From a virus: 64,000 bases of DNA. Under the pieces are notes generated by a model. That model saw only the letters and a list, made by a program, of their open reading frames with translations. It ran no database searches and was not told where the DNA came from. The stretch lies in IMG/VR virus record IMGVR_UViG_3300030616_000017, positions 83,159 to 147,158 of that record, one strand, 5' to 3'. Below are positions 3,382 to 35,434 of this stretch, one piece after another; the first letter of the stretch is position 1, and each line of letters starts with the position of its first letter. The position numbers were made by a program, and so were the translations under genes.

Positions 3382-4507
3382 AAGACCAAAAAAAGAACAA
3401 GAAGCAACTACACCCGATGTAACAAAAGAATTAAATTCACTTATGAATTCAATTAACAAAGCTTACGGAGATGGCATAGTACAAATAGGCGAAAGCGTAA
3501 TGAATCAAAAAGTGGAAAGATGGGAAATTGATTCTCCGAACGTGTCTTATGTGTTAGGAGGAGGAATTCCTAAAGGACGTATTATAGAGTTGTACGGGCC
3601 GGAGAGTTCTGGCAAAACAACATTAGCTACTTTTATGGCCGCTCAGATTCAGCAGAGAGGTGGAAAAGTAGCTGTTATAGACGCTGAACATGGTTTCGAT
3701 ATGGAGTATGCAGAAACGCTCGGCTTGAAAAAAGAAGAGGTAGTTTTCTCTCAACCCAGCTCAGGAGAGCAAGCCCTCAATGTTACACAAAAAATGGCTG
3801 AATCCGGTTTAATCGATTTTATCGTTATAGATTCTGTTGCTGCTCTCACGCCCGAAGCAGAAATTGCAGGAGAAATGGGCGACCAGACTATGGGTCTTCA
3901 AGCTCGTTTGATGGGGAGAGCTTTAAGAAAACTCATCGCTGTTTGCAACGAAACAAAAACTACTCTTTGTTTTATTAACCAAATCAGAATGAAAATCGGG
4001 GTATTGTATGGTAACCCCGAAACCACTCCTGGAGGCAAAGCCCTCAAATTCTACAGTTCTGTTCGTCTTGAAATCCGTAAAGTAGAGTGGATCAAAGAGA
4101 AACAAGAAGTAATAGGAGTTACTTCTCGTGTAAAGGGGGCTAAGAATAAAGTAGCACCTCCTTTTAGAAAAGCGGAAATAAATATTATTTTTGGAAAAGG
4201 ACTGCAATACGAAATGGAATACGTAGACCATGCCATCACCTACGACATTGTAAAGAAAGGAGGGGCGTGGTATAGTGTATTTGATGAAAAGGGGGAATTC
4301 ATAGATAAGTTTCAAGGCAAAGACAATCTTGTGGCTTATCTAAAAGAGAACGATGATGTATTCTCTCTCATCAAAGAACAAACTAAAAAAGCTATTGCAG
4401 GTAAGGTTATTAACGAGGTAGAGGAGGAAGAAAATGAACAAGCATTTGAAACCGATGAAATCGATTCCAATAGACTACAAGAAGATGGCTTACAATCAAC
4501 TGATTGA
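3374..4507 (+). CDS. recA: recombinase A
   Basis: GPESSGKT Walker A, IDAEH, DSVAAL, GLQARLM, NQIRMKIG, ETTPGGKALKFYSSVR. Confidence 0.98.
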   Translation: MAKRPKKEQEATTPDVTKELNSLMNSINKAYGDGIVQIGESVMNQKVERWEIDSPNVSYVLGGGIPKGRIIELYGPESSGKTTLATFMAAQIQQRGGKVAVIDAEHGFDMEYAETLGLKKEEVVFSQPSSGEQALNVTQKMAESGLIDFIVIDSVAALTPEAEIAGEMGDQTMGLQARLMGRALRKLIAVCNETKTTLCFINQIRMKIGVLYGNPETTPGGKALKFYSSVRLEIRKVEWIKEKQEVIGVTSRVKGAKNKVAPPFRKAEINIIFGKGLQYEMEYVDHAITYDIVKKGGAWYSVFDEKGEFIDKFQGKDNLVAYLKENDDVFSLIKEQTKKAIAGKVINEVEEEENEQAFETDEIDSNRLQEDGLQSTD

Positions 4508-8715: not shown

Positions 8716-8820
8716 GGGGGAGAAAATGGATTCGACTGCTACACTGCTGAAGCGACGAAAGGCCCAAAGTAACGAAAGCTGAGGTGTAGCAGGACTCGGG
8801 TTCGATGCCCGACTCCTCCA
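8716..8820 (+). ncRNA. ssrA: miniature tmRNA (tRNA-like domain only)
   Basis: GGGGGAG/CTCCTCC acceptor with G3.U70 and A73; GGATTCGAC; 9-bp H2 CTGCTACAC/GTGTAGCAG; GAC; T arm TCGGG-TTCGATG-CCCGA; 39-nt interior. Confidence 0.8.
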
Positions 8821-8833
8821 AAATAAAAAATAT

Positions 8834-9330: not shown

Positions 9331-9565
9331 GTAGGCAGAGGGAGTTCCTCTAAAAAACACGGTGAAAGTTTGAATACTCTCCGCCTACTTTATTGAAATT
9401 AATATGGCATAGAGGGTTCCTATACTATCAACTTTAAATTGAATTCTACCCTCCGCCATTTTAATATGAGTAATTAAGGGCATAAGAAGTTCCTAATGTA
9501 AAGAATTTACAGGGCAACTCCTACGGGAGCAGGGCCCTGTGCCAACAAACTTACTTCTCGCCCTT
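9331..9565 (+). ncRNA. three tandem Y-RNA-like bulged stem-loops (9331-9388, 9404-9459, 9476-9565)
   Basis: Each unit: ..GGC-A(T/G)A-6bp helix ending GT-TCCT-variable loop-T-AC..-bulged C-GCC..; helix sequences covary; own promoter 9296-9324. Confidence 0.7.
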
Positions 9566-9592: not shown

Positions 9593-11536
9593 ATGATTTC
9601 CACTCTACGTCTTTTTAATGGTATTATTATTCCCAACAAAGAAGTTCCTGAAGATACTAATTCAGTAATATGGCCTCATGAAAAGTCTTACGAACAGCTT
9701 ACTAAAGAAACTCTCAAGAAAGGATACATTGTTGATAAGGCTATCTATTTTAATCTTACTCCTGAAGGCTTAAAAGACTTTAACAAGGCTATGAAAGAAA
9801 AGCTTACTTTTCATCGAGATTGGAATAATAGCTTTTATAAGTCTTGGAATAAACTGGAAACTCTTTCAGATTTTGAATTGCGTTTAGACCAGCTTTTTCA
9901 TTACTTTACTACGTATGGAGCCGAAGCTCTTGGAATAAAAGATTCTTTTGTTTACCTCCCTAAAGGCAATACTTTTATGCCCCCTGTAAGTGAAGATTTT
10001 TCTTTTCTTTATATTCGTGGATTTGAAAGAGAAGAAATTCAGGAAAAGATTGTAGCTATGGTTGGTTCTGGAATTGCTCTAAAAGAAGAAACCATTGAAG
10101 ATCTTCTTACTATTGTTATGGAATTTTCAAAGAAGCACATTTTCGACATCTTCTCTGTTTGCAAGAACAAGGAAGTGAAGGTTCGATTAGCAGAGTTATA
10201 TGATTTTATTCCTAAAAATGTAGGAGAATTTCTTAGATACGTTATTTACAAGAATACAGGGAAGTCTCTTGTTATTAAGAATAAAGCTACAATTGACGCT
10301 ATAAAGATAGGGAGAGATAGAAAAACTCCTTCTTATTTCTATGCGTATAGAGATGCTTATGGGCTTGAAAGTCTTGCTAAAAACTTTTATCGGTATAAGC
10401 CTCTTCTTCTTGCTTTTCGGTCTGCATTCCCTGAACTAAAGCCACTGATTAATCAAGTAAGAAAACTTGCTGTAAAGTTCCATGAACCTATGAAAGAAGA
10501 TTTTCTTAATACTGTTACCAAAAAAATCAAACAGAATGCTGTTCTTAATCTCACCACTTTAGAACAAGAACTCTTTAAGGCAAACACCTTTAGAAAAGTA
10601 CGGTTGCTATATGCTCTTCAGAATCTGGAAAGCCAAACTGAAGATAAAATCTATAATATTCGGAACGGTAAACAGTATGTAACGAAAGCAAGTATGCCTC
10701 GATTTAAAAAAGAGGATGTTGCTTTTTTAGCTGATAAGGTCTATTCTCATATTGTTGAAGATATTAAACCAAATGTAGAAGGTAAGACAGTTTTGGTTCA
10801 TCCAAGACTTGCATATGCTCTTCCTTCTTCAGAAAAGAATTTTATAGGAAACTACCCTGTCAAGAGTAAGGTAGAATTCAACAGTACAAGAGACCTGATT
10901 ATTGGTGTTCACTGGAAAAATCAAAAAAATAGAGTAGATCTAGATCTTTCTCTTCTTAGTCTTGATGGAACCAAGTTTGGATGGAATGGTCGTTATAGGG
11001 ATGAAGGAATTCTTTTTTCAGGCGATGTGACTGATGCTCCTGGAGCAGGAGCTTCTGAGTTTTATTATTTCAAAGGTGTTAAAGACGGGATGTATTCAGT
11101 AGTTTTGAATTATTACAATTCTTATGGGGTAGAAGAAGAATGCCCTTTTGATATAATTATTGGGGCTTTTGATGGACAAGATATTAATAGGAATTTTATG
11201 TTACGCCCTGAAAATATTGTTTTTCAAGCCTCCTCATCTATCGGCCCTGAACAGATTAATCTGGGAATGGTGGTTATAGAGGGAGACAAAAAAGTATTTA
11301 GTATGATAGAGGGAAAGAGAGCTCGTGCTTCAGTGTCTGCTAACGATGAACTCAATGCTGTATATTTGAATGCACTTAAATCTGAAACTGAAAATATTAT
11401 ATTTCTAACAGATGTGCTTACTGATGCTGGAGCTGTAGTAGTAGAAGATCGAGAAGATTCAGTTATTGATTTTGATCTTACTCCTACCTATATTCAGAAA
11501 GATACCATTATGTCAATGTTTACAAAGGAGAGGTAA
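9593..11536 (+). CDS. helical (Ro/TROVE-like) + C-terminal TerD-like domain protein
   Basis: SD AAGGAG before ATG 9593; C-terminal VDLDLS..GWNGRY..FSGDVTDAP.GASEF; long helical N-terminal region. Confidence 0.6.
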   Translation: MISTLRLFNGIIIPNKEVPEDTNSVIWPHEKSYEQLTKETLKKGYIVDKAIYFNLTPEGLKDFNKAMKEKLTFHRDWNNSFYKSWNKLETLSDFELRLDQLFHYFTTYGAEALGIKDSFVYLPKGNTFMPPVSEDFSFLYIRGFEREEIQEKIVAMVGSGIALKEETIEDLLTIVMEFSKKHIFDIFSVCKNKEVKVRLAELYDFIPKNVGEFLRYVIYKNTGKSLVIKNKATIDAIKIGRDRKTPSYFYAYRDAYGLESLAKNFYRYKPLLLAFRSAFPELKPLINQVRKLAVKFHEPMKEDFLNTVTKKIKQNAVLNLTTLEQELFKANTFRKVRLLYALQNLESQTEDKIYNIRNGKQYVTKASMPRFKKEDVAFLADKVYSHIVEDIKPNVEGKTVLVHPRLAYALPSSEKNFIGNYPVKSKVEFNSTRDLIIGVHWKNQKNRVDLDLSLLSLDGTKFGWNGRYRDEGILFSGDVTDAPGAGASEFYYFKGVKDGMYSVVLNYYNSYGVEEECPFDIIIGAFDGQDINRNFMLRPENIVFQASSSIGPEQINLGMVVIEGDKKVFSMIEGKRARASVSANDELNAVYLNALKSETENIIFLTDVLTDAGAVVVEDREDSVIDFDLTPTYIQKDTIMSMFTKER

Positions 11537-14181: not shown

Positions 14182-14202
14182 TATAGTAAAAGGAGTAAAA
14201 GA

Positions 14203-14249
14203 ATGAAAAGGAGAGCTGTTTTCTAACTACTTAAATAAAGGAGTTAGAA
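14203..14249 (+). promoter_or_regulatory. 7-codon leader ORF (MKRRAVF*) + SD-sequestering hairpin
   Basis: AAGGAG SD, ATG 14203, TAA 14224-14226 inside TTCTAACT, which pairs with AGTTAGAA 14242-14249 overlapping the next SD. Confidence 0.5.
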
Positions 14250-14573: not shown

Positions 14574-14594
14574 GTTTTTGATTATATTATAATT

Positions 14595-14739
14595 GTAAGT
14601 TCAGTCAACCAACAGGGGGTCATGTCCTTGTAGAAGGTGTTACTGAAATATACGTGACGACGAAAGTAGATGCTGCAGAATCAAAATCTTTGGCGGTATT
14701 TTGGTAGAGGAGGACTTTTAATCCTCCTCCTGAACTTAC
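14595..14739 (+). ncRNA. orphan structured RNA (~145 nt)
   Basis: Perfect 10-bp terminal stem GTAAGTTCAG/CTGAACTTAC starting 7 nt after a -10 box; several internal hairpins; T run after. Confidence 0.55.
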
Positions 14740-16545: not shown

Positions 16546-16636
16546 AGGAGATGATCTTCACGGGGGACTGTAAATCCCTTCTGCGTTAACAATTGTGAAG
16601 TGGCTGCAGGGTTGGGTTCGATTCCCTCATCTCCCA
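16546..16636 (+). tRNA. D-armless tRNA-Tyr(GTA)-like
   Basis: GGAGATGA/TCATCTCC acceptor, loop CT-GTA-AA, T loop TTCGATT, no D hairpin, long variable arm. Confidence 0.7.
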
Positions 16637-16747
16637 TTTTTTTTGAAAAAGTTTAATTTTTACTTGAATTTTAGAAAAAACTTCGTTATATTATAAATAT
16701 GAATAAGATAATAAGAGGGAGTAAGGAATCGGTTAACTTAAACATTT

Positions 16748-16818
16748 AGGGGTATCGTCTAACGGTAAGACGCAGGGTTTTGGTCCCTGAGATAGGAGTT
16801 CGATTCTTCTTACCCCTA
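16748..16818 (+). tRNA. tRNA-Gln(TTG)
   Basis: Cloverleaf, loop TT-TTG-GT. Confidence 0.92.
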
Positions 16819-33173: not shown

Positions 33174-33510
33174 ACGGACTATTTACATTTCAGGGCCAAT
33201 GGAAGGAAAACCCAATAACAACTTTGCAGCATTTGAAGAAGCAGAGGAAATGCTAAAAGGGATGGGGTATGAGGTTATCAACCCCGCTAAACTTGCTGTC
33301 GATTCTAATTTTATAATTACCAATACTCCCAATAGACAGGATTATTATCGAAAGGATGTTAGAGCTCTTTCATATTGTACTGATATTTTTATGCTAAAGG
33401 ATTGGAACCTCTCTCATGGAGCAAAGTTTGAAAGGTATGTTGCTCTTGAAATTGGGGTAAAAATTCATTATTTTGGTGAGGTAGAAAGCGGGGTTTTGCG
33501 AGAAAGATAA
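33151..33510 (+). CDS. DUF4406 / nucleoside deoxyribosyltransferase-like protein
   Basis: IYISGPM.G, NPA, W..SHGAKFE. Confidence 0.8.
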   Translation: MITRTKSKRTIYISGPMEGKPNNNFAAFEEAEEMLKGMGYEVINPAKLAVDSNFIITNTPNRQDYYRKDVRALSYCTDIFMLKDWNLSHGAKFERYVALEIGVKIHYFGEVESGVLRER

Positions 33511-33528
33511 TACTAATATAATATGAAG

Positions 33529-33696
33529 CATACCTTCTATTGCTTGCCGATCCTAATTAGCTTAAAGGTAAAAGTGTCCTCACATCATCAAACAGAAAGT
33601 AGGGTTTTGAGAGCTCTCCCCACCGAGCTGTTTGTAGAGGAAGAGACGTGGGTTCAATTCCCGCGATTAGCCGTAGAATAGTAAAAGAAGAGTATG
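33529..33696 (+). ncRNA. tRNA-mimic RNA with expanded anticodon arm inside a long closing stem
   Basis: D arm GCTT-AAAGGTAA-AAGT, stem TCCTC/GAGGA around a 55-nt insert, T arm GTGGG-TTCAATT-CCCGC, outer stem CATAC-CTTCT/AGAAG-A-GTATG; ACTAATATA motif at 33512. Confidence 0.65.
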
Positions 33697-33798
33697 TAAC
33701 CCTTTCTGAAAAGGAGGTTGCTTTTTGAAGTTTTTCTAATAACATTCACTACTTGCGTTGCAAGAAAGCAAACCAAAAATGAAAGGAGTAAAAACATC

Positions 33799-33826
33799 AA
33801 CCCCTCTTTTTGAGGGGTTTTTATTT
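33799..33826 (+). terminator. intrinsic terminator
   Basis: AACCCCTC-TTTTT-GAGGGGTT + T run. Confidence 0.8.
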
Positions 33827-33878
33827 ACAAATACAAAGAAAGTTGTTATATTATAAATAGAGACATAAACATAGGAAG

Positions 33879-35206: not shown

Positions 35207-35434
35207 ATGTCCGGAGAAAAGGTTTTTGATAAACGAGAAATCGATAGAATGCATAAAGGGGAGTTGTATCGAGAAAGAAGCTCAACTGAGCGCCAGATCA
35301 GAACACAAATTCAACATCTTGAACGGCTTGGGCCTACAGACAAATACCATGATATTAGAAGACAGCATCTCCGTGTATTATACGAAAAGAGATCTTATAT
35401 AGAGAAGAGAATCAAAGAACTAAATAAAGGATAA
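35207..35434 (+). CDS. hypothetical protein
   Basis: ORF with SD. Confidence 0.6.
   Translation: MSGEKVFDKREIDRMHKGELYRERSSTERQIRTQIQHLERLGPTDKYHDIRRQHLRVLYEKRSYIEKRIKELNKG

Follow-up and report, generated by a model that had tools for sequence, protein, structure and literature searches.

A stand-alone structured RNA with a tRNA-like body and a second conserved domain in an uncultured tailed phage

Genomic context and predicted transcription of the RNA

The 64,000-nt stretch of DNA analysed here (the window) covers the final 64 kb of a virus record of 147 kb that is rated complete and that, judged by its sequence, comes from an uncultured tailed phage; a 683-aa protein encoded at 39834-41885 matches terminase large subunits at approximately 25%. 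Eighteen tRNAs are called between 8833 and 16899, a 108-nt tmRNA match lies at 8716-8823, and the phage also encodes two RNA ligases, one of them of T4 type, PNKP and a STAS domain. A tRNA-Tyr-like gene with a reduced D arm (16546-16636) and a 145-nt structured RNA (14590-14739) are additionally present and are missed by both ARAGORN and Rfam.

The RNA described here occupies a stretch without genes, flanked by a DUF4406 gene that ends at 33510 and by a 433-aa uncharacterised gene. It is approximately 17 kb from the tRNA cluster, which is the distance given in an earlier, sequence-only reading of this DNA. That reading also placed the RNA behind a motif of its own, which proves to be a real phage promoter core. 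Exact copies of the motif ACTAATATA number 26, compared with an expectation of 2.9; most have the form ACTAATATAAT and stand immediately 5' of genes, and the motif is therefore taken as the extended -10 promoter of the phage. The copy at 33512-33522 (+ strand, ACTAATATAAT) predicts a transcription start at approximately 33528-33530, which is the first pair of the outer stem P1, and the same motif is found at an equal distance from the RNA in a distant relative, L067, whose copy is compared with that of the window throughout.

The hairpin at 33696-33726, which had been taken for the terminator, is weak, at -8.7 kcal/mol in the window and -2.6 kcal/mol in L067, and the terminator scan does not recover it. 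The terminator of both copies is instead an intrinsic one at 33799-33826 (+), with one double change in its stem. The RNA is therefore probably approximately 295 nt long and includes a second domain; the sequence-only reading had placed the tRNA-like part correctly but had set the 3' boundary too early and missed this conserved part. The fold z-score is -3.1 for a 297-nt stretch versus -1.2 for the earlier-noted stretch with its flanks. The next gene has a separate sigma70-type promoter (33824-33852, +) directly after the terminator. With its own predicted promoter and terminator, the RNA would form a stand-alone transcription unit. A 52-aa ORF at 33523-33681 was considered and rejected: its ATG stands right behind the -10 box with no Shine-Dalgarno (SD) sequence, and in L067 it is frameshifted and only 19 aa long.

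A tRNA-like domain with both ends capped

The outer stem P1 (33528-33544 paired with 33680-33697, +) belongs to the MFE structure of both copies, and its core, CTTCT/AGAAG, is identical in the two. The internal loop below the acceptor-like stem (33548-33552 opposite 33671-33676, +) is a candidate bulged-G (loop E/S-turn) motif, with which its pattern of change would be consistent, as the closing pair turns from C-G to U-A in L067 and GA opposite GUA is kept. The shortened acceptor-like stem (33553-33557 with 33666-33670, +) leads to U8-A9, a D arm (33560-33575) with G18G19 at 33567-68, and G26 (33558-33576 in all, +). The anticodon-like stem TCCTC/GAGGA (33577-81/33637-41) together with the insert that replaces its loop occupies 33577-33641 (+), and the variable loop AGAG and a T arm (33648-33664) with a sixth pair complete the body (33642-33665, +). 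The insert has 55 nt (33582-33636) in the window and 42 nt in L067, and it contains a nested 6-bp stem (33590-95/33628-33) and a palindrome at 33609-33618. All of the arms and stems, and the insert with its nested stem and palindrome, lie where the sequence-only reading had put them. In both copies the acceptor consists of 5 bp plus the extra T pair rather than 7 bp, and, as first described, it continues into P1 without a free end; a CCA is likewise lacking, and no gene for a CCA-adding enzyme was found in the phage.

Read from the two sequences, the retained bases are those for the tertiary contacts U8-A14, A9 with U12-A23, G10-U25 with G45, U13-A22 with A46, G26-A44, G19-C56 and U54-A58, and the bases of the tRNA triple network (A9, A44, G45 and A46 with a GCUU/AAGU D stem) are present in both. 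The exceptions in the elbow and core are U55, which is C in L067, and the Levitt pair, which is A-C in the window. Compared with tRNA (RF00005), the locus has the D arm, the T arm and the core tertiary bases, and it lacks a 7-nt anticodon loop, either directly or after splicing. Neither ARAGORN (default settings) nor Rfam makes a call at the locus, where the sole Rfam trace is an 18-nt tmRNA T-arm fragment of 11 bits, and a generic descriptor of D arm, long insert and T arm has a single match in the 147-kb genome, namely the RNA site. The cloverleaf is at most 1 kcal/mol from the MFE in the window sequence and 6.4 kcal/mol above it in L067. As far as the letters can tell, the RNA is derived from a tRNA gene; sequence and covariation show that domain 1 retains the tRNA four-way junction.

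The insert stands at the usual position of tRNA introns and the phage encodes RNA ligases, as would suit an intron-containing tRNA from which the insert is spliced out. The sequence-only reading had found the insert too short for a group I/II intron, and an intron-containing tRNA is considered extremely unlikely here: no single excision restores Y32-U33...R37 in either copy, neither sequence forms the 4-bp BHB helix at positions 32-35, a gene for a splicing endonuclease is missing from the phage, and the 7-bp acceptor, the CCA and a shared anticodon are all missing.

A distant homologue preserves the fold through compensatory changes

Because direct DNA searches gave no homologue, relatives were sought through the terminase, and L067 was reached from these by way of the syntenic gap. 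The terminase of L067 is 73% identical, and the four-fold degenerate sites are only 43% and 31% identical, which is near saturation. The syntenic gap of 365 nt contains the same promoter and terminator, with the tRNA-like domain and the second domain between them, and model R1, built from the window only, scores L067 at 35.9 bits, above all true tRNAs. The two RNAs are 53% identical overall and 74% identical in domain 2, which, with four-fold sites near saturation, indicates purifying selection on this non-coding DNA.

The homologue played no part in the prediction of the stems, and invariant anchors set their registers. Among the 26 anchored pairs, 13 are unchanged, 8 carry double changes, 3 carry single changes and 2 are broken (a tandem U-U in the acceptor-like stem), such that 24 hold. 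The compensatory changes are located in the acceptor-like stem (three double changes beside the two U-U mismatches), the 5-bp anticodon-like stem (three double and one single) and the T stem, where the extra pair C33647-G33665 becomes U-A and the arm also has two single changes; the D stem is identical, and the D loop is one base shorter in L067. With realistic transition rates, reshuffling the changed positions gives a null P of 3.5e-5 to 1.3e-3, and redrawing the letters alone gives 1.2e-3 to 0.018. For 20 core pairs, 95% of cells are paired versus 48-58% in slid controls, and the observed values are reached by 1 of 500 shuffles. The nested stem of the insert is also rebuilt in L067, by five double changes, and was left out of the pair count because it is aligned by structure. 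As there are two sequences and all 8 double changes are transitions, the covariation provides good but not definitive evidence that the tRNA-like fold is real and under selection.

Decay without covariation, the pattern that the sequence-only reading associated with a pseudo-tRNA, is thus not what the homologue displays. That the stems covary argues against a decayed tRNA, and since the distantly related L067 arrives at the same shape through other letters, the RNA appears to be functional. A decayed tRNA gene or a functionless structured spacer would agree with the lack of the RNA in most relatives and with the two U-U mismatches and C55 of L067; however, the compensatory changes, the invariant blocks and the promoter and terminator kept despite near-saturated synonymous sites make this explanation very improbable.

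The tip of the insert is a palindrome in both copies

The tip of the insert is a perfect 10-nt palindrome, GAGAGCTCTC (33609-33618, +), which is a candidate homodimerisation site. The inserts of the window and L067 are unrelated in sequence, and both end in a perfect 10-nt palindrome, which in L067 is a different one, GGTGGCCACC (shuffle P of about 0.04). These tips are the only 10-mer palindromes within either RNA, and a perfect 10-mer palindrome is present in 1 of 36 other expanded tRNA bodies. The homodimer is predicted to be more stable than two monomers, a comparison that proves little since dimer energies favour any palindrome. Palindromic pairing is an established RNA dimer interface (PMC12990946), and tip-to-tip homodimers via the palindrome are predicted here with moderate support. 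The earlier view of the RNA as an uncharged tRNA-elbow mimic is supported, and the mimic would also be non-decoding.

Domain 2 is the most conserved part of the RNA

Domain 2 (33701-33790, +) folds as a long stem with interruptions that ends in a three-way junction bearing hairpins at 33726-48 and 33752-64, an MFE architecture that both copies share. It is the most conserved part of the RNA in sequence, with 58 of 78 aligned columns identical (74%); the stems are largely unchanged, apart from one pair altered on both sides and two basal-stem pairs broken in L067. Such conservation of sequence would fit a binding surface for a protein or RNA partner. A hammerhead, a GEMM or an SRP-Alu element was rejected for this domain because core letters are missing in one or both copies, and a CsrA sponge because looped GGA sites are too few.

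In both copies, GGTTG is able to pair upstream (TAACY) or downstream (CAACC), and the upstream pairing leaves room for a two-state switch. The RNA could accordingly be a precursor or switch, in which a shorter product would be freed, by RNase P cleavage or because transcription stops at the weak hairpin 33697-33720, and GGTTG would give two forms. The stack of acceptor and T stem has 11 bp, near the 12-bp RNase P ruler, and YrlA of M. smegmatis is an RNase P substrate that is cleaved (PMC4201824). However, the leader is base-paired and a CCA is lacking, and the upstream hairpin does not pass the terminator scan, its energy being only -2.6 kcal/mol in L067. Nor is there anything to attenuate, since the next gene has a promoter of its own. 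A precursor or switch is therefore regarded as improbable.

Also within domain 2 is a perfect SD sequence (33711-18), behind which a putative four-codon micro-ORF starts with UUG (33725-39; 33711-33739 in all, +); both are read from the sequence. The segment AAGGAGGT is invariant and complementary to the anti-SD over 8-9 nt, with duplex energies of -12.8 and -13.3 kcal/mol for the two copies, and TTG-AAR-NTT-YTY-TAA begins 7 or 10 nt past the SD, giving the peptide MKFF in the window and MKIL in L067. Translation of the micro-ORF is a lead only, because a conserved stem can account for part of the SD and ORF letters. Elsewhere in the window, an SD with a seven-codon mini-ORF (MKRRAVF; 14190-14228, +) follows tRNA-Ser(TGA) and is loosely like this micro-ORF.

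A 75-aa basic protein encoded at 35207-35434 (+) is found only in this phage sub-clade, and in L067 its gene is directly 3' of the RNA. The best matches of its AlphaFold model (pLDDT 91) are ribosomal chains of uL29 size, one of them labelled L29P, with Z up to 10.0 and an rmsd of 1.0 over 62 residues. For helical hairpins, however, a Z below 13 counts as weak, and uL29 gives no match at the sequence level. The model suggests a possible phage uL29-fold protein, which also occurs in L126 and L078 without an adjacent RNA.

These features permit a ribosome-directed RNA to be envisaged, in which the SD and the UUG four-codon ORF load or trap 30S/70S and the elbow mimic acts on the L1 stalk or E site, possibly jointly with the neighbouring uL29-fold protein. 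The segment AAGGAGGTTG is invariant, and the start, the Lys codon (with a synonymous change) and the stop are equally spaced in both copies; the confident uL29-size model of the nearby protein adds a little. Such a role is nevertheless doubtful, as the SD is in part base-paired, the conserved stem also accounts for TGAA, the long acceptor and anticodon arms do not fit the A or P site, and the protein, with its weak uL29 likeness, is found in L126 and L078 with no RNA beside it. Still less probable is a new class in which a dimeric, doubly capped elbow mimic with a ribosome-binding domain would trap or redirect host ribosomes together with the uL29-fold protein.

Distribution of the RNA

The RNA is represented by two distinct sequences, those of the window's phage, of which L001-L003 are identical copies, and L067. 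It is absent from G002 and G003, which are complete, more distant relatives, and is therefore accessory. Models R1 (core) and R2 (domain 2) detect only the window's phage and L067; the search covered 21 and 51 other virus records and related loci, mostly distant relatives or fragments, behind a lossy first-look filter. The contigs of the closest relatives (L126, L268 and L269) stop short of the expected site, and L269 starts with a similar terminator and promoter before the same gene, such terminators being generic. Cultured phages and plasmids give no sequence match to the RNA, exact and degenerate patterns in IMG/VR return chance matches or other tRNA bodies, and one GTDB scan finds no homologue. 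No Rfam family matches either copy at gathering or E-value thresholds, and a literature search found no description of such an RNA architecture.

Comparison with known RNAs

The RNA resembles YrlA (RF02553; PMC4201824; bioRxiv 10.1101/312249) in its uncharged module of D and T loops, the lack of a free CCA, the long terminal helix and the two-module design. In YrlA itself the order is permuted, with T before D, the Ro60 helix takes the place of the anticodon arm, the acceptor is closed by a loop, a GNCGAAN0-1G motif is present and the gene adjoins rsr. In the phage RNA, by contrast, D precedes T, the helix prolongs the acceptor, and a palindromic arm and a 3' domain are added. RF02553 has no match at the RNA site, the Ro60 motif GNCGAAN0-1G is absent (GCCGAT in the window and ACTGAA in L067), and TROVE (PF05731) has no match in the genome. 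A YrlA assignment thus fails on order, motif and model score and finds no TROVE protein, in agreement with the initial separation of the RNA from permuted YrlA by its D-then-T order.

A 647-aa protein (9593-11536) could be a diverged ring protein, although its single-sequence model has a pLDDT of 34 and is unusable. Its gene has no Pfam match and is preceded at 9331-9565 by three hairpin RNAs that share a handle (five in G002); the same handle-RNA system is present at L136:17270-17690, and homologues of the gene occur in L159, L167, L180, L223 and L234. The handle, GCA..GTTCCT and TAC..CGC with a lone C, is found nine times in G000 and G002 and not at the RNA, and the only feature common to it and P1 is a purine/pyrimidine strand asymmetry. 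Because the invariant letters are missing, the RNA is not a handle RNA of the 647-aa gene. Duplex scans of the RNA against the mini-tmRNA and the handle RNAs, run without a control, give diffuse pairings only.

Phage tRNA bodies with enlarged anticodon arms, which are not in Rfam, share the D-then-T order, an intact elbow and an insert of 25-55 nt. In these bodies the 7-bp acceptor is complete and its end free, and most of them lie within tRNA arrays, whereas in the phage RNA a 5+6 stack is locked into a helix, the transcription unit is separate and domain 2 is added. A loose D-arm/T-arm pattern has 117 matches in IMG/VR and yields at least 36 distinct bodies with a full acceptor, one from GTDB. 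A locked acceptor is found in 0 of the 36 distinct enlarged-arm bodies, and domain 2 in 0 of 47 such phage records. Enlarged arms of this kind are widespread among the tRNA bodies of phages, so that feature alone does not make the new ncRNA class suggested earlier. What is distinctive is that the acceptor is locked, the tip palindromic, domain 2 present and the transcription unit stand-alone, all in one RNA.

The enlarged-arm bodies of L147-L265 are nearly all in phages, and the L148 and L162 families recur in many gut phages. Full acceptor stems with enlarged anticodon arms are seen at L136:16170-16290 and 16660-16750, L159:2380-2490 and L167:845-950, and three of the bodies in these records have the handle motif within the arm. 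A repeated motif, GGTTCC..ACAAGCAA..TCACTTGAACC, is found around or inside tRNA-like sequences at L121:3060-3490 and 3775-3930 and at L071:10-290 and 610-760, and also in the variable region of a tRNA-Phe-like body in this set.

The species 1 and 2 RNAs of T4 (rnaC and rnaD) are likewise stable, tRNA-related phage RNAs; they lie within the tRNA cluster and undergo tRNA-like processing, and species 1 is CCA-ended. A tmRNA, including the CDS-less phage mini-tmRNA known from DS6A (RF00023; PMC11915505), shares with the phage RNA a tRNA-like domain, a similar T arm and a possible short ORF in the second domain. A tmRNA has a 7-bp acceptor, G3-U70 and CCA and lacks a D stem, and the phage RNA agrees with none of these. 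The window carries a mini-tmRNA as a separate gene (8716-8823, +), with a tRNA-like domain and helix 2 and almost no mRNA domain, and short tmRNA forms are present in related phages at L121:15530-15660 and L071:15600-15720. ARRPOF, OLE, ROOL and GOLLD (PMC12990946) are also large structured RNAs that form dimers or oligomers, some with links to phage tRNA regions; the phage RNA has no Rfam match to any of them, and its dimer is a prediction.

Proposed role of the RNA

The acceptor end of the RNA is locked in the long closing helix, and a palindrome-tipped hairpin stands in for the anticodon loop. The RNA may therefore adopt an L shape that can be neither charged nor used for decoding, with the elbow and the D/T surface as its recognisable face. 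Two molecules would pair through the palindromes at their tips, and domain 2 would hold a protein or RNA partner. In this arrangement the RNA would be a stable two-part tether that joins an elbow-binding host factor of RNA processing, repair or translation to the domain 2 partner, that is, a Y-RNA logic reached by different wiring and without Ro60. We give this Y-RNA-like tether a probability of roughly 40%. It is the most economical reading because the uncharged tRNA-like module of YrlA has been proposed to recruit effectors via its elbow (bioRxiv 10.1101/312249). The two RNA ligases and the PNKP of the phage also speak for it. Points against it are that TROVE has no match, that P1 is without the invariant handle letters, that the RNA is known in two sequences and missing from G002 and G003, that position 55 deviates in L067 and the Levitt pair in the window, and that the cloverleaf is not the MFE structure in L067.

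The same capped ends would also suit a decoy for anti-phage systems that cut or sense tRNAs, in which the host enzyme would be titrated by a tRNA body that offers it no anticodon loop or 3' end to cleave, and domain 2 and P1 would supply stability. Both ends cut by such enzymes are masked, the phage has 18 called tRNAs, a mini-tmRNA and tRNA-repair enzymes, and the distribution of the RNA is patchy, as is typical of counter-defence genes. However, most known anticodon nucleases read the anticodon loop, which the RNA does not have. The strong conservation of domain 2 would be left unexplained, and the RNA lies 17 kb away from the tRNA cluster. A decoy is therefore unlikely, although it deserves more weight than a ribosome-directed or precursor role.

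By these comparisons, the locus encodes a real, selected and uncatalogued structured RNA that is a new architectural variant among tRNA-mimic non-coding RNAs. Its tRNA-mimic architecture, in which a self-pairing tip and a second conserved domain are joined to a capped elbow, is undescribed. As both functional ends are blocked, only the elbow remains, and the RNA is small enough for direct transcription, which would offer a clean route to the role of uncharged tRNA look-alikes in phages, a question that also concerns the effectors of YrlA and the many anticodon-less tRNA bodies of phage genomes.
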